Shown piece by piece: positions 18,246 to 36,199 of a DNA stretch of 64,000 bases. Origin of the DNA: an uncultured Candidatus Saccharibacteria bacterium (lineage in GTDB: Bacteria; Patescibacteriota; Doudnabacteria; UBA920; 2-02-FULL-46-11); the NCBI GenBank assembly GCA_964609765.1, contig CAZSSD010000001.1:45282-109281 (forward strand), written 5' to 3'. The position numbers and the translations under genes were made by a program. How positions within the stretch are numbered: position 1 is the stretch's first letter; each line of letters begins with the position of its first letter. The notes beneath the pieces were generated by a model that made no database searches, had not been told where the DNA came from, and saw only the letters and a program-made list of their open reading frames with translations.

Positions 18246-19190
18246 ATGCCTGTACGTTTAACCGGAAGGAGTGCTCCCACTTACCGATCAGGGCGTACCA
18301 GCCCGTACGTCCGTTTTCGGCGTTCCGGACTGCAGGAACGCGTAGAACAGAAGAAGACGAATCACAAAAACCGCGCTTATCGCCATAGCCATTGGCTCGG
18401 TTTATTGACGCCGGTTGGCCTCACCACTAGCTTGGCTGTTCTTTTGTTACTGGTGGGCGGTCTGTGGTTTTTTGTTTTCAGCACCTCTTTTTTGATCGAT
18501 GAAGTCAAAATTGTTGGCCCGACTTCTTTAACGCGCAGCCAAATTAACAAGGTGTTTTACGCGTTGCAGGACAAGCGCGTATTGTTTTTTATTCCAGCTA
18601 ACCACGTAGTTTTTTTAAGTAAAAAAAGGATGGCCGGTGAGCTGAAAAATTCTTATCCTCATATCGCTGAAGTATCCCATTACGACCGCACCTTACCTAA
18701 CCAGATTTCCTTTGCGGTTTTGGAGAAGAAGCCGGCGTTTGTCTTGACCGCCGATAACGGATCCCGCTATCTCCTGGATGAAGACGGCTTCAGTTTGGGT
18801 GAAGCGCTTTCGGCGCTGCCTGCCCAGAGTATAGATATCAGAGGAAATTTATCCACCCAGGCGGAAGCAGGGACCCAAATTGTCGGGGTTCCGGTCTTGA
18901 GTTTTGCCAGTTCGGTGCAAAAAAAATGGCCGGCGGACTGGAGTTTTAGGCCGGTTCAGTACGAGATATTAACGGAGGTCGGTTCGGGCGAGTTTAAAAT
19001 TTTGCTTAATGAAGGCTGGTTTGTTAAAGCGGCTGGCGCCAATAGCGCGGAAAGTTTGGTCGCCAACGTACAAACTATCCTGGCTAACGAGTTTGATACT
19101 GACGAAAAACGCCGGCAGCTTTCATATATCGATTTGCGCCTTACGAGCCGAGCTTTTTATTGTCTGAAAGATAAACCCTGCGCCAAATAA
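18246..19190 (+). CDS. FtsQ/DivIB-like cell division protein (cytoplasmic tail, one TM segment, POTRA domain)
   Basis: Basic N-terminus, a TM helix (LAVLLLLVGGLWFFVF) and a POTRA-like FLIDEVKIVGPTSLTRSQINKVF. Confidence 0.5.
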   Translation: MPVRLTGRSAPTYRSGRTSPYVRFRRSGLQERVEQKKTNHKNRAYRHSHWLGLLTPVGLTTSLAVLLLLVGGLWFFVFSTSFLIDEVKIVGPTSLTRSQINKVFYALQDKRVLFFIPANHVVFLSKKRMAGELKNSYPHIAEVSHYDRTLPNQISFAVLEKKPAFVLTADNGSRYLLDEDGFSLGEALSALPAQSIDIRGNLSTQAEAGTQIVGVPVLSFASSVQKKWPADWSFRPVQYEILTEVGSGEFKILLNEGWFVKAAGANSAESLVANVQTILANEFDTDEKRRQLSYIDLRLTSRAFYCLKDKPCAK

Positions 19191-25979: not shown

Positions 25980-26291
25980 ATGTTCGCGATTATCCAAACC
26001 GGTGGCAAGCAATACACTGTTTCACCTGAACAGACCGTCAAAATAGAAAAGCTCAAGGCTGAAAAAGGGGAAACCGTTACGTTCGATAAGGTTCTTTTGG
26101 TGGCTGATGACGATAGTGTTAAAGTGGGGAAGCCGTTTGTAGCCGGGGCGAGTGTTTCCGGGCAGGTTTTGACCCAAGCCAAGGATAAAAAAATCAGGGT
26201 TTTTAAGTATAAGGCCAAATCTAAGTATCGCCGTACCGCTGGGCACAGGCAGGCTTATACGGCCGTAAAAATCGGCGAGATTAAGGTCTAG
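25980..26291 (+). CDS. rplU: 50S ribosomal protein L21
   Basis: [14 protein letters not shown]... Confidence 0.9.
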
Positions 26292-26315
26292 TTCCGAAAA
26301 AAAGCACTTAATTTC

Positions 26316-26344
26316 AACCACCAAGAGCCGGTGGTTGTTTTAGT
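26316..26344 (+). terminator. rplU terminator (CAACCACC-aagagcc-GGTGGTTG plus TTTTAG)
   Basis: 8-bp stem followed by a T-run. Confidence 0.6.
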
Positions 26345-26345
26345 A

Positions 26346-26373
26346 TTGACTATTTCTTTTAATGTTGTAAAAT
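26346..26373 (+). promoter_or_regulatory. sigma70-like promoter TTGACT-16 nt-TAAAAT driving the downstream ncRNA/tRNA region
   Basis: Near-consensus boxes immediately after the rplU terminator. Confidence 0.5.
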
Positions 26374-26382
26374 ATGATACAC

Positions 26383-26905
26383 GGACATTAAGTTCTGGTT
26401 TGGGTAGCCTTAACGTCTAAGTCCAACTAGCGGACTCGCACGGAGGATCGGCCGATCTACCATGGCCTCCGTATGGAAAGCTTGAGGACCCTTAGGTGTT
26501 AACCCACTCCCAACTAACGTCAGCCAGGCCTGCTCACCTCGTTCCGATCGCAAGGTGCGTGGTAAGCGGGTTCTGCAGTTAGGGCGGAGCGCGGAGTACG
26601 AGGCGCGAAACCGGGGAAGAACCAAATCTTGGGCGGGAAACAAACCAAACTCGTCGCTGTGGGAGGTTTGCGATCAAACAAGAAATGGTTCAACGTTGGC
26701 GTAGCCCACAGCCGGTAACCAGTCTTTTGGGGGGACTGGGGATGGCGGCAGGCGTTGGTAAAGCGAGCAGTGCTGGAACGGAGAGATGCTGAATGGGTTC
26801 GGGAGTTGTTCGCCACTAGTGTGCGGCAACTTACCTTGAGCGGCTCGGTCGATCCGGTAGGGCATTGTAAGGTTTGCGAATTGCTTGCGTGGAGCCCAAA
26901 CCAGA
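26383..26905 (+). ncRNA. unclassified GC-rich structured ncRNA candidate (~520 nt)
   Basis: Promoter-proximal, GC-rich, and carries only overlapping junk ORFs on both strands. Many local helices. Weak CR-IV/CR-V-like strings (GGTGCGTGGTAAGCGGG; CACAGCCGGTAACC). Confidence 0.3.
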
Positions 26906-26909
26906 TATT

Positions 26910-27015
26910 GGGGCTGGACCTCGGGTGTGAGGCACGGGGGAATTCATCCTCCCCCCGTGGCGCTGTTCGCGGTCTTTGCTCGCGACAGGGTCGGGTTCGA
27001 TTCCCGTCAGCTCCA
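26910..27015 (+). ncRNA. atypical 106-nt tRNA-like element with a tmRNA/tRNA-Ala-type acceptor stem
   Basis: 5' GGGGCTG and 3' CAGCTCC-A acceptor strands with a G3:U70 pair. T-arm CGGG-TTCGATT-CCCG. 4-nt D-loop (CCTCG-GGTG-TGAGG). An 8-bp hairpin CACGGGGG/CCCCCGTG with an 11-nt loop containing UUCAU. A long extra arm (CTGTTCGCG...CGCGACAG). Confidence 0.4.
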
Positions 27016-27017
27016 TT

Positions 27018-27110
27018 GGAGAGGTAGCCAAGCGGCCAAAGGCGCCGGGGTGTTACTCCGGTGATCGGGTCAATACCTGGTCTGCGTGGGTTCGAATCCC
27101 ACCCTCTCCA
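27018..27110 (+). tRNA. class II (long variable arm) tRNA, Tyr/Ser-like D-arm; the anticodon loop reads gUGUUAc (apparent GUU)
   Basis: Acceptor GGAGAGG/CCTCTCC plus discriminator A. D-arm GCC-AAGCGGCCAAA-GGC. Anticodon stem CCGGG/TCCGG. 24-nt variable arm. T-arm GTGGG-TTCGAAT-CCCAC. No encoded CCA. Confidence 0.75.
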
Positions 27111-27285
27111 TGAAGTACTGGGCAGTGGTCTCCCTTCCGTTGCCTAGAGTTGGAGGAGTAATTCCTTTTCGGAGCGCAGTGCCTCGCGTGGTGACGGGTG
27201 AAACCCGGGACTCCCAAGCCTAGAGCTTGGGAATAATACCGGGGAGTAAGTCCCGATCCAGCGAGCCTGCCCCTCCGGGCACAAA

Positions 27286-27330
27286 AAGCCGTAGCGTTGC
27301 ATGAAACACGCTACGGCTTTACCTTTTATT
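27286..27330. terminator. bidirectional terminator hairpin (AAGCCGTAGCGT...ACGCTACGGCTT) between the tRNA region and recR
   Basis: 12-bp stem with an A-run on one side and a T-run on the other. Confidence 0.55.
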
Positions 27331-27341
27331 GGTGGGTTTTA

Positions 27342-27947
27342 CTATTTTCCGTACTCCCGACGGCCCTCGAGGGCGGAGGTGAGCGTGACTTCGTCCGCGT
27401 ACTCAAGTTCGCCGCCAATGGGCAAGCCCCTCGCGATGCGCGTTACGCGCACACCTATCTCTTTAAGCTGCTTGGCGATGTACATGGCCGTGGTCTCGCC
27501 CTCAAGATCGGCGTTGGTGGCGAGAATGACTTCTTTAACGGTTCCGTTTTGGACCTTGGCCAGGAGTTCATTTATTTTTAAATCTTCAGGGCCCACGCCG
27601 TCAATGGGGGCAATGCTGCCGCCCAAGACATGGTAAACTCCCTGATAATCGCCGGTTGATTCCAAGGCCACTACATCGAGGGGTTTTTCCACCACGGCAA
27701 TTATGCTCTTATCGCGCCGGCTGTCGCGGCATATTTCGCAAACACTGCCTTCAGACATCGTGTAGCACTCACGGCAATAGTCTATGCCGCCTTTGAGCTC
27801 TGATATGGCAGCACCAAACTCTTTCAAATCCGACTCGGCCCAGTTAAGCATGGCAAAAGAAAGACGGCCGGCGGTTTTAGGGCCGAGGCCGGGTAGTTTA
27901 GTGAACTGATCAATGAGTTTTTGTAGGGCTTTAGGCAGCTTAGACAT
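27342..27947 (-). CDS. recR: recombination protein RecR
   Basis: HhH motif (LPGLGPKTAGRL), a C4 zinc finger (CRECYTMSEGSVCEIC) and a Toprim domain. Confidence 0.9.
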   Translation of the reverse strand: MSKLPKALQKLIDQFTKLPGLGPKTAGRLSFAMLNWAESDLKEFGAAISELKGGIDYCRECYTMSEGSVCEICRDSRRDKSIIAVVEKPLDVVALESTGDYQGVYHVLGGSIAPIDGVGPEDLKINELLAKVQNGTVKEVILATNADLEGETTAMYIAKQLKEIGVRVTRIARGLPIGGELEYADEVTLTSALEGRREYGK

Positions 27948-30914: not shown

Positions 30915-33584
30915 ATGAGAAAGTTTAGGCCGGGAGCCGGAGACGGAAAAGACGAACAAGACGAAGGAGTTCGCTTTTGGGATCCGGAAGGCAAGCTGAA
31001 AAAAGTAACACCGGGCCGAATACGGGAAAAAGAGGGCAAAGAACCAAGCAGGCCTATTTTTATTAGAGGGTCCATGGAGAAGCCGGAATTTTTTCCCTAT
31101 GGCTACGACCAGCCATGGTTATCAGAACGCACCGCCGGCCTAGACAAGCTAACAGTACCCGAGCTTGAAGTCGAATTGAGCAAACTTGAACTCCTTTTGG
31201 AAGGCCTTAACCGCGGTGAAGCCCAAAGAAAGGGCAGTTTCCGAGAGCAATTATTGCTGGCTGAACGGATAAGCGCGATTAAGGCATTATTGGCAACCGC
31301 TGATAGAATCAAGCCCATGGCCGCGGAAAGTAAGGTTGCAGATACGTCATCTGTTGTTGAGCAGGTTTTCGAGCATCCAGAAGTTATTGAACAAGAGCCC
31401 ATACTCGTCGAGCTTATTAGAAAACATGTAATTCAAGACCTTAAGGAATTAAGCCAAAAGGAGCTCGATATGGAGGCCACGGCGATGGTTCAGGAGATAA
31501 GGGCCTTGGGTCTGCGTAAAAAAATTGAACCGCGGTTAGAGCAGGCCTACGAGTGGGTCTTGGCTGAAAAGGAGAACCGCCTCAAGGCCAACAGGCTTGA
31601 GGGTGATGATTTTACGCCTCCGGTTGATGCCACAGAGCGTTTTGTGATCCCGGCCGCATATTTGAGCAATCCTGATTTGGCGTTGTATCCCGCCGCCTTG
31701 GTTCGCGAATCAGACCAAGCCGAATTGGAGGGCTTGCGGGACCATGTTGCCAGTCAGATTAAAGATGCGGAAGAATGGCCGGACTCTAAGAAAAAAAGGG
31801 CAATGTTTGCCATACTCAAGAGGCGCCTAGAACAACTGGAATCTGAAATACAAAGTCGCCTGCAGCGACTGGAATCTCAAAAACAAAGGCGTGATGCCAA
31901 AATAAGAGCTGAAGAAGAAAAGTATTGGCACGGGCCAAAAATCCTATATGATGGCCGTGAAAAAGAACTGACTCTGGAAGAGCAAGTTGCCTGGTTGGCC
32001 AGCGAGATTAGGCATGCGAGCACCCGGATGCTGAAAACCAAAGCACAAGTGGAGCCGCGCGAGCGATACATTTCCCAACTTAAAAAAGCACTTATCAGAA
32101 AACAAGAAGAGTTGGTTGTAACCAAACGATATGTGGGCGAACCAAATGGCGAGCCTGCGGCCGAGCCCGCGGGGGAAGCGGGCGAGGTGGCTAGACCCGC
32201 GGCCATAGATTGGCGCGCTGACTTAAGCGACGAAATCGAGCGGGGTACCATCAATCTCCCTTCTGCGCAGGAGTTGGAGGGCTCCACGCCCGATCAGCTC
32301 AACGGCATTGTCACTAAAGTATTGCCCTCTATTCGAAGGCGGCTGACCCGCGATCATCAGGAGGACCCGGCCGAACTGCGTAGAAAATTAGATGCGGTTA
32401 CGGCCTATGAGGAGCAGGTTTTAGCGCCTGTTTTGCAAGTGGTTCAGGACCGAGCCAACCAAGCTAAAAGCAAGCCGGCGACCGAAGCGCGGGCTGAAAA
32501 TGACGCTACTCCCGTTACTGAAAAACCTACTCCTGCCAGCCGAGGGCGCGGCCGGCCTCGAAAGGAAGTCCAAGCAGAAGATCAAAGCACCGTTAGACTT
32601 CGCCAAAAACTCGCTGATCTGAATACAGAAATCGAAACCAGAGAGCGCCAGAAGGCAGAACTGGTAGAGCGGCAGAAGCGGCTGACCGCAGCTTTTGATA
32701 ATTTAAAGGAGTTGAGAGACTTTATAGATACAATCGAACTCGGCCAGGGCGAACCTACCGAGAAAGAAACGCAAGCGGTTGACCAACTTGTTCGCAAAGC
32801 CTTTGCCGCGCTTAACAGCCTGGTTCTGGTAGAATATACATCACTTGACTACCGCAAAAAAATAGAAAAAGGCAAAAAGGAAATTCTAAAGTTAAGGTTG
32901 GAACCGGGCAAGTTAATAGATGTTGATTTTGTCAAAATGGAAGCTCGCGCCGAAAACGGCGATTTATTGGATACACTATTCGTTTCCGCGGACGGACAAC
33001 TGGGGCTCAACAGACCAAAGCAAAAGCCTATCCGGGAGGTGGAAGCCATGCGTATTATTTTGGGCGATCTTAGGGCGATCGCATTGAATTTTAGAGATTT
33101 GGTTGGCAGTGAAAGGGTTCAAGTTCGTAGGGAACTTGGTTATTTGGGGGATAAGGTGCTTGCACCACTTTATGCGGCGCGCGATAAATTTATCGGCATG
33201 CTCGCTACCCGAAGACCCGAGCAGGCAGCGGCAGGAGAAAAAGGTAAAAGTGGGCGACCGGGTAAGCGCGAGGGCAGAAAAGAAGTTCCGCCTCGTTCCG
33301 CGCAAGCTGTTCCGGCCGAGACTCCTCCAGCACCCGAAGCTCGAGCCAGCGGCAATGAAACCGATGCCGAGAAAATCCGCAAAAGCTTCGCTTCGTTATT
33401 TGCGGTAGCGGCGCGGCGAGCCGGTGGGGTGGGCAAAACTTTTAGCATCCAAGGGCCGCAAGGTGTTATTAGTGGTGAAATGTTGGACATGCATAGTATT
33501 TCGGTGGCGCGTAAAACTCCCGAAGGCCAAGAGGTCGAAAAAGGCATCATTACCAACGACGGGCACTTTATTCCCAGCAAGTAA
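30915..33584 (+). CDS. giant hypothetical protein (889 aa), highly charged coiled-coil with an AT-hook-like GRGRPRK
   Basis: Extended-TGn -10 box TGGTATAAT at 30855. K/E/R-rich heptad-like segments and an RGRGRPRK motif. First gene of a co-directional cluster. Confidence 0.6.
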   Translation: MRKFRPGAGDGKDEQDEGVRFWDPEGKLKKVTPGRIREKEGKEPSRPIFIRGSMEKPEFFPYGYDQPWLSERTAGLDKLTVPELEVELSKLELLLEGLNRGEAQRKGSFREQLLLAERISAIKALLATADRIKPMAAESKVADTSSVVEQVFEHPEVIEQEPILVELIRKHVIQDLKELSQKELDMEATAMVQEIRALGLRKKIEPRLEQAYEWVLAEKENRLKANRLEGDDFTPPVDATERFVIPAAYLSNPDLALYPAALVRESDQAELEGLRDHVASQIKDAEEWPDSKKKRAMFAILKRRLEQLESEIQSRLQRLESQKQRRDAKIRAEEEKYWHGPKILYDGREKELTLEEQVAWLASEIRHASTRMLKTKAQVEPRERYISQLKKALIRKQEELVVTKRYVGEPNGEPAAEPAGEAGEVARPAAIDWRADLSDEIERGTINLPSAQELEGSTPDQLNGIVTKVLPSIRRRLTRDHQEDPAELRRKLDAVTAYEEQVLAPVLQVVQDRANQAKSKPATEARAENDATPVTEKPTPASRGRGRPRKEVQAEDQSTVRLRQKLADLNTEIETRERQKAELVERQKRLTAAFDNLKELRDFIDTIELGQGEPTEKETQAVDQLVRKAFAALNSLVLVEYTSLDYRKKIEKGKKEILKLRLEPGKLIDVDFVKMEARAENGDLLDTLFVSADGQLGLNRPKQKPIREVEAMRIILGDLRAIALNFRDLVGSERVQVRRELGYLGDKVLAPLYAARDKFIGMLATRRPEQAAAGEKGKSGRPGKREGRKEVPPRSAQAVPAETPPAPEARASGNETDAEKIRKSFASLFAVAARRAGGVGKTFSIQGPQGVISGEMLDMHSISVARKTPEGQEVEKGIITNDGHFIPSK

Positions 33585-33598
33585 TTTACCTACTCAAA

Positions 33599-36199
33599 AT
33601 GTCAGATCCTATTCAACCGGGTTCGCCAATTGATCCTACTTCAGCCGAGACAGGCAGTGAGCTTTCTGACGCAGCTCATCTAGTCTCTAGTTTGCGTCAA
33701 AACATTGAAGAGGTTTCGGCTATGGTTGCCGGCGTTTCCGCAAAGAAAGCGCCTTTGGCTGATTTTTTCCCCATTTGGCAGCGTGTTAAGCAGATACGTG
33801 AACAATTTAAACAGTTACCTGATGTCCCGCTTTGGCAGGACGAACAAACGCAATTATACGAGGCCTATGAAGCCATTCGTTATGGCCGCTATCAAGAATT
33901 TTTACGCGGTGCACTTGCTGACGCCCTTCAAGAGCTAAATCCCGATTGGCCTGAATCAGAAGTAAATCGCTACCGCAACACAATGTCTTTGCCAGAAATG
34001 CAGGATAAAGTTCTCAATGCTGCAAGACTGGTACGTAGATTGAACGAGAATTTAGATTTTCTCCGGGGCGTACTATCTCACGCACCCGAGCTTAAAATTT
34101 TGGAAAATATGGAGACTTTGCTCGCGGCCCAAAGCGAAATTGAAGACATTATAGATCAGTTGCAAAGCACTCTTGAAAGCGGCACCACGCCAATCAATAC
34201 GGGCTTAGTGGCGGAGTTGCGCGAGCGCGTTAATAATGTAAAAAAAGACCTCGCAGATTTAAACCGAAAAGCATCAGAGGAGGGTCAAGTTCAGCCTGCT
34301 GCAGAGTCGGCGCCAGTGGAAACAGAACAGCCAGTTCCGGCTGTAGTTACTGTCGAGCCGTCTGCGGCAACGCCGTCGGCGGAGCGGGAAGCCATTGAAA
34401 TAACCGGTTCGCTGGCTAAAAAAATGGAAAATATTTACGCCAACTTGCAGGACAAGGGTGTTAATGTTCCATATGGGTTATACCATTTTGAATTTAACGG
34501 GACCGATGTAGCTTTCTATGTAACTGCTGATTTTGAGGGTCAGGGCCGGTATGTGGGAATAACATCTACCGAAAAAGGACGCTCGGTACAGGTTGATTTC
34601 CGGCTCTATCTTGATTTGGGCAAAGTTGAATTACGTAAAGGAAGCGACAAACAAATTGTAACCGGCGAGCCGGCCATGGCTACGCTCGAGGACCTATTGG
34701 TTAAGCTGGAAAGCGGTACGGGTAAAAAATTTATAAGCGAACCGGCCCGGACTGTGGCGGAAACCCAAGAGCCTTCGCCCACGGATTTGGACGCAGCTTT
34801 GCTACACGAGCAGGAGGAACCGGCTATGCCCGAGGCCGCGGTAACAGAGGCAAGAGAAATTGGGCGGCCGCAGCCTGCTGAAATTGCCGCATCGGGATGG
34901 GAGAATCTTGTTATGCCGTCAACTTCGCTGCGGGCGCCGCTCAATGTTATAGAGCGATCGGACGGCACCCATGCTATCTACATCAGAGCAGGCGCGGAAA
35001 TAGACCACATAGCTGTCGGCGGCATCAGACATAATTTATTTCCTGAAGCCGAGGCTTATGAAAGATTAGAAACAATTGAACCGGCCATAGTGCGCATTCA
35101 GCCCACCACAACCGCCGGCGAAGTCACCTATAGCGTGGTCAAGCAAGGCGTGGTCAAGCAAGCTGGAGAAGCTGAACTAAGACCGGCCTCTCCCTCTGGC
35201 CTGGCCGCGCAACCCGCTTTGGGCGCAGAAATAATTGCGGAAGCGCCGACAACCGAGATGGAACCGGCGCCGGTTGAGGCGACTCCGACCCCGCAAGCCC
35301 CACCTGCTCCCGAGGAACGCGAAGAAGATGTAGCGGCAGTTCCTGATGCTGCCCAACCCGAACCAGAACCCCAACCAGAACCAGAACCTATTAGACCGGA
35401 ACGGCAGCAAACTTTTGATATGGCGGAATTTGCCGCGCTGGCGGCTGAATTCGCGCGGGAGGCGGATAAAGAAGATTATTACACCTGGGAAATGGGTCTT
35501 GCCCGCTTACCCCAAGAGCTTATCGACAGTTCAGAAGAGAGATTAAAACGAATCAGAGTGATTATTGATGAGTTTGGGCATTTAATTGGGCTAGAGGCAA
35601 AAGTTAAAGATGATTTAGGTTACGAGCTTCGTATTTCTGTTCAAAAAAGCGCTTTCAGTAGTTCGGCAAAAGACGGCGTGCGGGTAGTTTTAAACTTTGC
35701 CGACAAGGATATGAAAAGCATAACCTGGAATTTTGTCGACGATGGCTATATTTCTTTTAGCGGATGGTTGGGTAAAGACCCTTTACCTGATTTTGCCAGC
35801 AAACACAATCTGACTAGTGTCCAAAAGGATGCTCTGGCTGTTTCTGAATTTGAAAGATTGATTATGCCCCTAAAGGGGCGGCTTGAGGAAGTTGATAAAC
35901 AAAAACAGATAGCCGCCGCCGAAGCAGAACTAGAAAAAGAAAGAGAAAAAGAAAGAGACGACTATGAGCCGATAACTAGGGAGCAGAGATTAGTAAATCA
36001 AACGAAGTATAATAGGTTAGCGCCGCTTGCGGCTAAAGCTAAAAACGGCAGACTTGAACTTCCTAATGGACAAGTTTTGGAATTCTTGCCCGAGGCGGGC
36101 GAGAGCAGGCACAGAAATATTTTAGTAATTAACGAGGCAGATGGGACCTATGTAGTTATTGACGAAGAAGGCCATCGTCTGGCTATTGATTTAGAATGA
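33599..36199 (+). CDS. giant hypothetical protein (866 aa) with a PEPEPQPEPEP low-complexity linker
   Basis: 15-nt gap after the previous gene. Acidic, with a Pro/Glu repeat encoded by a CCAGAA tandem repeat at about 35346-35400. Confidence 0.6.
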   Translation: MSDPIQPGSPIDPTSAETGSELSDAAHLVSSLRQNIEEVSAMVAGVSAKKAPLADFFPIWQRVKQIREQFKQLPDVPLWQDEQTQLYEAYEAIRYGRYQEFLRGALADALQELNPDWPESEVNRYRNTMSLPEMQDKVLNAARLVRRLNENLDFLRGVLSHAPELKILENMETLLAAQSEIEDIIDQLQSTLESGTTPINTGLVAELRERVNNVKKDLADLNRKASEEGQVQPAAESAPVETEQPVPAVVTVEPSAATPSAEREAIEITGSLAKKMENIYANLQDKGVNVPYGLYHFEFNGTDVAFYVTADFEGQGRYVGITSTEKGRSVQVDFRLYLDLGKVELRKGSDKQIVTGEPAMATLEDLLVKLESGTGKKFISEPARTVAETQEPSPTDLDAALLHEQEEPAMPEAAVTEAREIGRPQPAEIAASGWENLVMPSTSLRAPLNVIERSDGTHAIYIRAGAEIDHIAVGGIRHNLFPEAEAYERLETIEPAIVRIQPTTTAGEVTYSVVKQGVVKQAGEAELRPASPSGLAAQPALGAEIIAEAPTTEMEPAPVEATPTPQAPPAPEEREEDVAAVPDAAQPEPEPQPEPEPIRPERQQTFDMAEFAALAAEFAREADKEDYYTWEMGLARLPQELIDSSEERLKRIRVIIDEFGHLIGLEAKVKDDLGYELRISVQKSAFSSSAKDGVRVVLNFADKDMKSITWNFVDDGYISFSGWLGKDPLPDFASKHNLTSVQKDALAVSEFERLIMPLKGRLEEVDKQKQIAAAEAELEKEREKERDDYEPITREQRLVNQTKYNRLAPLAAKAKNGRLELPNGQVLEFLPEAGESRHRNILVINEADGTYVVIDEEGHRLAIDLE

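Follow-up and report, generated by a model that had tools for sequence, protein, structure and literature searches.

A probable large non-coding RNA joined to a tRNA-shaped element in the rplU/recR gap of Doudnabacteria-like bacteria

In eukaryotes, RNase P cuts a tRNA-like structure that lies 3′ of a long non-coding RNA, as in MALAT1 (mascRNA) and MEN-beta. Bacteria and phages have large, ornate RNAs of their own, ROOL and GOLLD, both of which are Rfam families; ROOL averages 581 nt (PMC5737381, PMC12286853). These RNAs adjoin tRNA genes, and GOLLD can carry covalently linked tRNAs (PMC5737381, PMC12286853). Also relevant here are the (8/4) allo-tRNAs, some of which carry a G3:U70 pair and are alanylated in E. 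coli; they have been proposed to act as suppressors and/or as regulatory ncRNAs (PMC5389517).

The locus described here has points in common with each of these systems. It lies in a 64,000-nt stretch of DNA (the window) from a small soil CPR bacterium, which comparisons of L21 (71% identity to a Candidatus Doudnabacteria MAG) and RecR (72-76% identity to the nearest proteins) put in a Doudnabacteria-like lineage. The gene order cysS-dnaB-recR, gap, rplU-GT4-GT2 is conserved in this lineage. In the window, the gap contains a structured RNA (26374-26909) followed by two tRNA-shaped RNAs, and one distinct homologue of the large RNA was found, in another Doudnabacteria-like species (L085). The explanation we lean towards, with somewhat more belief than doubt, is a new and rare large ncRNA that is made from an RNA-only operon and freed by RNase P at a tRNA mimic. 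The large RNA is probably real and functional, with a family of two sequences. The features of the locus are as follows.

25980-26291: rplU (Pfam Ribosomal_L21p match on the identical called gene).
26315-26337, plus strand: intrinsic terminator hairpin of rplU, an 8-bp stem followed by TTTTAGTATT; this is the upstream edge of the unit.
26346-26373, plus strand: sigma-70-type promoter, TTGACT-16-TAAAAT, matching 10 of 12 consensus positions.
26374-26393, plus strand: short 5′ leader with a CG-ACAU core that is conserved in the alignment with L085 (ACACGGACAU in the window, ACCGAACAU in L085).
26394-26405, plus strand: 5′ strand of the terminal helix P1, UCUGGUUUGGGU; 26394-26404 and 26895-26905 are an 11-nt perfect inverted repeat, 490 nt apart.
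26408-26416, plus strand: 5′ strand of P1b, an extension of P1, pairing with 26887-26894.
26533-26596, plus strand: distal part of a second long hairpin domain (three stacked helices projected from L085).
26650-26717, plus strand: most conserved core, with CUCGUCGCUGUGGGAGG (26650-26666), CAAGAA (26679-26684) and the invariant UGGCGUAGCCCACAGCCGGUA (26697-26717).
26834-26842, plus strand: conserved block CCUUGAGCG of the 3′ domain, identical in L085.
26887-26905, plus strand: 3′ strands of P1b and P1, GCGUGGAGCCCAAACCAGA.
26906-26909, plus strand: 4-nt linker UAUU, read from the sequence, between P1 and G1 of the tRNA-like element.
26910-27015, plus strand: tRNA-shaped element of 106 nt, recognised by its fold and 80% identical in L085.
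27018-27110, plus strand: class II tRNA with anticodon GUU and an 8-bp variable arm (RF00005, 54.2 bits; tRNA-Asn in ARAGORN).
27111-27284, plus strand: structured, ORF-free 3′ trailer (z = -4.97), assigned to the same transcription unit.
27285-27333, bidirectional: intrinsic terminator common to this unit and recR, a 13-bp perfect inverted repeat with T runs on both strands.
27342-27947, minus strand: recR, with its stop at 27342.

The boundaries of the unit are well marked. A sequence-only reading of this DNA had described the rplU terminator followed by a promoter, and both are present: a hairpin with its T run, then the two hexamers, which together with their 16-nt spacing are identical in L085. 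L085 also has an equivalent hairpin 3′ of rplU. Among the three promoter-like sites in 1.8 kb (1.3 expected), the one at 26346-26373 ranks best, and we predict that transcription starts at about 26379-26381. The same reading correctly gave an RNA part of about 520 nt that leads into a tRNA-like element and then a tRNA (the element without an ARAGORN call), but it let the ORF-free stretch end at 26905, whereas the ORF-free unit extends past this point to the terminator at 27285-27333, about 950 nt in all. The trailer had no Rfam match and was not alignable with relatives. The reading went astray in expecting rpmA at this place: rpmA lies directly 3′ of rplU in none of the related CPR genomes inspected, in most of which rplU converges directly on recR, and no L27 motif was found in the 64,000-nt window. 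The rpmA framing is irrelevant to this lineage, and the RNA is an insertion, not a replacement of rpmA.

The large RNA region has no coding potential. As described before, it is GC-rich (56.8% G+C over 26394-26905 against 48.5% for the whole window) and contains junk ORFs only: those of 26374-26909 are short on both strands and had no Pfam match at E<=1, and there are no gene calls in the RNA stretch on the identical Logan contig. In a six-frame comparison with L085, similarity was equally weak and stop-riddled in all frames on both strands, so the conservation is not protein-coding. A coding function was rejected on these absent Pfam matches and the absent frame-specific conservation. An RNA on the minus strand was also rejected, since promoter, tRNAs and G-U pairs alike point to the plus strand.

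The RNA folds into a stable structure. A 637-nt segment (26380-27016) has a folding z-score of -5.41 against dinucleotide-preserving shuffles, and the L085 counterpart has z = -3.48. Promoter, non-coding character and fold stability support the predicted transcript, a single structured RNA that continues into the tRNA-like element and the tRNA, much as had been suggested. We also note that high G+C alone raises fold stability.

The terminal helix P1 (11-12 bp, 26394-26405 with 26894-26905) closes about 490 nt and carries two compensatory changes, CU/AG in the window to UC/GA in L085. When the L085 MFE helix corresponding to P1b is projected on the window, 7 of 8 pairs are kept, two with compensatory and four with one-sided changes; the latter are of the G-U/G-C kind and fit the plus strand. 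Of the 25 pairs projected for the distal hairpin at 26533-26596, 18 are kept, including 10 in which both sides have changed. Within the conserved core, a predicted helix pairs GCUGUGG (26656-26662) with CCACAGC (26706-26712) around a 43-nt interior; its pairs are invariant in both species and are thus uninformative for or against pairing.

The L085 sequence is identical to those of L086 and L087, and the RecR and L21 proteins of this species are 74% and 79% identical to those of the window. The large RNA itself is about 45% identical overall, and the alignment includes identical blocks of 21/21, 13/13, 11/11 and 9/9 positions; because overall identity is so low, these blocks reflect selection. 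L085 keeps CUCGUCGCUGUGG, CAAGAA, the invariant block of the core (21/21), the conserved block of the 3′ domain, the promoter, the 5′ leader motif, P1, and the tRNA-shaped element. Folding the alignment of the two sequences gives a consensus structure with z = -4.22 relative to shuffled columns, and none of 100 shuffles does as well. In an independent test, projecting the L085 MFE structure on the window gives 62% canonical pairs (35-43% in slid controls), and of 45 pairs changed on both sides 33 remain canonical (11-21 in controls). In the other direction, with the window MFE structure projected on L085, the result is weaker, 51% canonical pairs against 30-41% in controls.

Comparative alignment, proposed earlier as a check, yielded compensatory changes between two species and a low z-score, with the limit that two distinct sequences make covariation statistics weak and do not allow the full secondary structure to be fixed. 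Most of the consensus structure is alignment-dependent, and alternative MAFFT settings and a pairing-profile-guided alignment gave no better consensus fold. The RNAalifold structure is 100% paired by construction, hence circular, and was not used as independent evidence. When the tRNA-like loops were compared with the large RNA for complementarity conserved in both species, one coincidence emerged, at alignment column 60; we estimate that about 0.5 would occur by chance.

In both species the tRNA-shaped element follows P1 after a gap of 2-5 nt, and in the window the linker at 26906-26909 is a predicted RNase P leader, at the end of which cleavage may take place. The element's acceptor stem, with G3-U70 and A73, measures 8 bp. 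The element also has a D stem of 4-5 bp with a loop of 4-6 nt, a long variable arm, and a 4-bp T stem (CGGG/CCCG in the window, UGGG/CCCG in L085). Its 'anticodon' stem is 9-10 bp long and is capped by the conserved loop UUCAUCC, in which position 37 is C; in the window this loop can widen to 11 nt. Between window and L085, the eighth acceptor pair changes from G8-U to A8-U, there is an extra A-U pair in the anticodon stem, and two pairs in the variable arm are compensatory. ARAGORN did not call the element, and the Rfam tRNA-Sec model, whose gathering threshold is 47, gave 16.2 and 26.8 bits. The element's final 22 nt are the same as the 3′ ends of genuine tmRNAs called by ARAGORN. As modelled, the elongated anticodon arm counts against a role in decoding. 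The alanine-type identity marks make the element a candidate for charging by AlaRS. The class II tRNA begins 2 nt past the element and is absent from L085.

By its context, the large RNA resembles ROOL and GOLLD: it is of similar size (about 515-530 nt), multi-domain, highly paired and non-coding, and it adjoins tRNA genes, with which it is probably co-transcribed. We would nevertheless count it in neither family. The ROOL and GOLLD covariance models gave no match at E<=10. A phage or prophage setting is frequent for these families, if not obligatory, whereas the neighbours here are GT2, GT4, L21, RecR, DnaB, and CysS; the RNA is in a CPR chromosome in two species and has no matches in viral collections. 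The likeness to MALAT1/mascRNA is in the arrangement, a long ncRNA followed directly by a tRNA-shaped element that may not decode, and in the processing logic that we propose for it. The best non-tRNA match in cmscan, a weak one, is in fact to mascRNA-menRNA (19.7 bits, gathering threshold 42.5). The two systems differ in that there is no homology, a real tRNA and a trailer follow here, and cleavage here is only proposed. With the allo-tRNAs, the element shares a 12-bp acceptor branch (8+4), a long variable arm, G3-U70 and a weak resemblance to tRNA-Sec. It differs from them in its anticodon stem (9-10 bp against 5-6 bp), in a pyrimidine instead of a purine at position 37, in the phylum of its host, and in being fused to a large RNA.

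Among all loci and collections searched, the large RNA was found in two Doudnabacteria-like species only. None of 80 L21-bearing genome loci had blastn similarity to it; among the contigs examined for RecR and L21 neighbours it is present only in L085, L086, and L087, and an nhmmer profile run against every fetched locus added no member. An 18-mer, GGCGTAGCCCACAGCCGG, had 21 matches in JGI metagenomes, all of them chance matches inside coding DNA. A spurious 172-aa antisense ORF of L085, called by the ENA pipeline, matched only itself in protein databases. In viral scans, including IMG/VR, one RNA motif had no match and a second only chance matches, and for the tRNA-like element the D-arm pattern had no match and the T-arm pattern matched tmRNA ends only. 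Phage records matched the tRNA alone (a phage tRNA-Ser) and not the large RNA; plasmid records gave no match.

The rplU/recR gap of relatives contains other inserts. In L001, L090, and L172 there is a small lipoprotein-like ORF and a tRNA-Thr, and in relatives with a plain tRNA-Thr in the gap other non-coding sequence lies upstream of it. In L088 and L166 the gap is occupied by another structured RNA with a promoter (z = -6.8 in L166, which carries a tRNA-like 3′ module of its own), a third is present in L092 (z = -4.0), and L169 has a fourth insert that is unstructured (z = -0.85). Homology among the relatives' inserts (types B, C, and E) was not detectable. With content that differs from lineage to lineage, the gap is an insertion hot spot and the RNA a lineage-specific acquisition, and rpmA was never to be expected. 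'CPR-specific', one of the identities suggested for the RNA, is thus too broad a term. Since close relatives do without the large RNA, it is dispensable for the lineage and may have been acquired recently.

No catalogued family accounts for the large RNA. Rfam 15 covariance models were run on 26200-27400 at gathering thresholds and at E<=10, the check that the sequence-only reading had proposed, and returned no family for it in the window; nor did Rfam return one on L085, L088, L090, L083, L166, or L092. ARAGORN, with default and relaxed settings, gave only noise besides the one tRNA. We find it very improbable that the RNA has diverged strongly from a known large class, be it RNase P RNA, tmRNA, or a group I intron of Patescibacteria that Rfam misses. 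RNase P RNA is comparable in size range, in having its 5′ and 3′ ends joined by a terminal helix, and in closeness to tRNA substrates. Its models, among them RF00010 and RF00011, gave no match, whether on 26200-27400 (E<=10) or on L085 (E<=1). We take the P4 strands of RNase P RNA to be GGAAAGUCC... (CR-I) and ACAGAAnCCGGCUUA (CR-V). The window has the similar AUGGAAAGCUUGAGG at about 26472-26486, where L085 has AUGGUACCGGUUGCGG at the aligned place; ACAGCCGGUA is mid-molecule, within a local hairpin and away from the 3′ end, and GGAAAG (26475-26480) is not kept in L085. The P4, CR-I, and CR-V sequences are thus absent or unconserved between the homologues, and the 'unusual rnpB' that had been suggested finds no support. 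For tmRNA, the case is made by the acceptor stem GGGGCUG...CAGCUCCA with the tmRNA/tRNA-Ala marks G3-U70 and A73, by the T arm GGGUUCGAUUCCC, and by the tmRNA-identical 3′ end. One might think of a 'split' tmRNA with an mRNA-like domain upstream of a self-contained tRNA-like domain, and in our own reading one frame ends, suggestively, in GCG-UAG within the invariant block of both homologues (...STLA* in the window, ...HYVA* in L085). The register of this frame to CAAGAA differs between the homologues, however, and conservation continues for 15 nt past the stop. Unlike the tRNA-like domain of tmRNA, the tRNA-shaped element includes a D stem and a variable arm, its anticodon-like hairpin is closed, and it lacks the P2 helix and pseudoknots. 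It forms one uninterrupted piece in which a loop of 7-11 nt closes the central arm, so there is no P2 helix to the large RNA, which lies wholly 5′ of the element's G1. ARAGORN and Rfam found no tmRNA, in agreement with the sequence-only reading: relaxed ARAGORN gave unrelated tags in the window and L085, and of the RNase P, tmRNA (RF00023, RF01849-51, RF04321), and intron models only tmRNA_permuted scored at E=10 (12.5 bits, gathering threshold 47), on the T arm only. A group I intron was rejected because the 15-20 nt or so between the predicted start and P1 leave no room for a 5′ exon; the RNA has no exons, and the downstream tRNA-shaped element is already complete. RF00028 had no match at E<=10, a model that patescibacterial (tRNA) group I introns are reported to escape (PMC13011429).

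Two other explanations concern the function of the RNA. The 520 nt may do no more than precede a small tRNA operon, as its structured 5′ leader or as a spacer, with the role, for example, of stabilising the tRNA-shaped element or timing its maturation, and with no function once cut off. This would suit the physical fusion to the element through a 2-5 nt linker in both species, the lack of detected homologues away from the element, and the relatives that have other non-coding sequence before a plain tRNA-Thr. We consider it unlikely: a spacer is not expected to keep a 21/21 block, a compensated P1, and distal hairpins between species with about 75% identity in their housekeeping proteins. A bacterial tRNA leader normally measures tens of nucleotides, a length that about 520 nt exceeds. 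As to the 'processed tRNA leader' once envisaged for this RNA, co-transcription with the tRNA-like element and release by RNase P are most likely, while the 21-nt block and the conserved helices argue for something beyond a spacer. The other explanation, the remains of a mobile or integrative element that is decaying in a neutral spacer between convergent genes, beside a tRNA-type attachment site, would make fold stability a by-product of G+C and the terminal inverted repeat a transposon-like end. The gap is a hot spot whose content differs by lineage, an 11-nt terminal inverted repeat is present, G+C is above the genome average, and the 3′ 22 nt of the element correspond to tmRNA 3′ ends. Such tmRNA 3′ ends are classic integration sites. 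Allo-tRNAs have moreover been reported near transposon-related genes and toxin-antitoxin systems (PMC5389517). We judge a mobile element improbable all the same. There is no second copy in the window, and integrase, transposase, and phage genes are absent nearby. The promoter is conserved, the changes in the terminal repeat are compensated and not one-sided, and the z-scores (-5.4 and -4.2) are low despite shuffles that preserve composition, which counts against a G+C by-product. A MITE was rejected on the single copy and the compensated terminal-repeat changes.

We return to the explanation that we prefer, a large ncRNA freed from an RNA-only operon. In this model, 26346-27333 would be an operon of RNAs only, inserted in the convergent rplU/recR spacer and transcribed from the conserved promoter. 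Its first and largest product would be a multi-domain ncRNA of about 515-530 nt from an uncatalogued family, with its 5′ and 3′ ends locked by the 11-12 bp of P1. RNase P would cut at G26910 and again at G27018, the G1 of each tRNA-shaped RNA, and so set the large RNA free with P1 protecting its two ends. Once mature, this RNA may be a stand-alone fold that either scaffolds a protein partner or assembles from RNA only, and the invariant block of 21 nt (26697-26717) may be a functional contact site.

A wider proposal, which we regard as quite doubtful, unites the large RNA with both tRNA-shaped RNAs downstream of it in a single functional system. Both tRNA-shaped RNAs would be chargeable at their acceptor ends, with anticodon arms that are closed or elongated, and the ornate RNA would work with non-decoding mimics of aminoacyl-tRNA. 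It might be a scaffold or ribozyme for tRNA-dependent chemistry outside decoding, or a split device resembling trans-translation.

Complex-fold bacterial ncRNAs of more than 500 nt are very few, and in the ROOL paper only rRNAs, GOLLD, and group II introns are larger among complex bacterial ncRNAs (PMC5737381). Every such class of large RNA has so far proved out of the ordinary in structure or biochemistry; OLE dimerises, and ROOL and GOLLD assemble into RNA cages (PMC12286853). Occurrence in two species limits what can be claimed at present. An example in a genome-reduced CPR bacterium would be a further candidate for structural and functional study, and its fusion to a tRNA mimic with alanine identity may be a bacterial parallel to the RNase P-dependent formation of long-ncRNA 3′ ends. 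If the large RNA and both tRNA-shaped RNAs do form one system, CPR bacteria would have a large functional RNA of a new class.

Beyond the large RNA, the convergent spacer between rplU and recR in the window holds the following elements.

Window 26910-27015: tRNA-shaped element of 106 nt, with 8/4 acceptor/T geometry and a long variable arm.
Window 27018-27110: class II tRNA, with a variable arm of 8 bp and a D stem of 3 bp.
Window 27111-27284: trailer with a strong fold (z = -4.97) and no ORF, lying after the tRNA and before the terminator shared with recR.

The tRNA-shaped element carries the alanine identity marks G3-U70 and A73, and its anticodon-like stem of 9-10 bp is capped by a conserved loop, UUCAUCC. 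It resembles the (8/4) allo-tRNAs with G3:U70 (PMC5389517). The homologous locus of another Doudnabacteria-like species (L085) keeps the element, with compensatory changes, and the 3′ ends of tmRNA are identical to its 3′ 22 nt. ARAGORN made no call on it, and its Rfam tRNA-Sec score was below threshold. The trailer had no match in the Rfam search and could not be aligned with relatives.

In many CPR genomes (L003, L010, L011, L016, and L035), rpmA is not the next gene after rplU, which converges on recR-dnaB-cysS with tens of nucleotides in between. The 64-kb window contains no L27 motif. Elsewhere in the window, a Pfam search at E<=1e-5 matched none of three sizeable ORFs, at 30915-33584 (889 aa), 33599-36199 (866 aa), and 18246-19190 (314 aa).

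At the same gap, relatives that lack the large RNA carry other content, and in L085 an ORF is called across the large RNA itself.

L166 2935-3572, minus strand: different promoter-driven, ORF-free RNA.
L088 3640-4480, minus strand: different promoter-driven, ORF-free RNA.
L092 1840-2338, minus strand: third promoter-driven structured RNA, unrelated (z = -4.0).
L001 4303-5740 (nearest named Doudnabacteria genome), also L090 and L172: ORF and tRNA-Thr(UGU).
L085 1701-2219, plus strand of the locus, antisense to the large RNA: 172-aa “gene” called in ENA assemblies.

What the L166 and L088 RNAs have in common is limited to the promoter and the initial ~25 nt (AAAUCCGCAGUUUA.AAA). The L166 RNA (folding z = -6.8) has a tRNA-like module of its own at the end, whose acceptor is GGGAUUGG/CCAAUUCU and whose T arm is ACGGGUUCGAUUCCCGU, and the L092 RNA has three UAGCGGA repeats in a 3′ hairpin. 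In L001, the gap contains a 156-aa ORF with a lipoprotein-like signal peptide (MQKHFRRMGVLVALILAVVVVAC...), followed by ~280 nt of non-coding sequence and the tRNA-Thr(UGU); L090 and L172 likewise have a small lipoprotein-like ORF and a tRNA-Thr. The 172-aa call in L085 is a spurious antisense ORF; it has no Pfam match and no homologue among the 5.8 billion proteins searched.

The class II tRNA of the window has no counterpart at the L085 locus; its nearest match in a phage search is a tRNA-Ser (72.8%). It has the D loop AAGCGGCCAAA and A73, and carries the Asn anticodon GUU despite its class II form. Pairing of G32-C38 and U33-A37 could shrink the anticodon loop to 3 nt. The molecule may be a missense tRNA, or one that does not decode.
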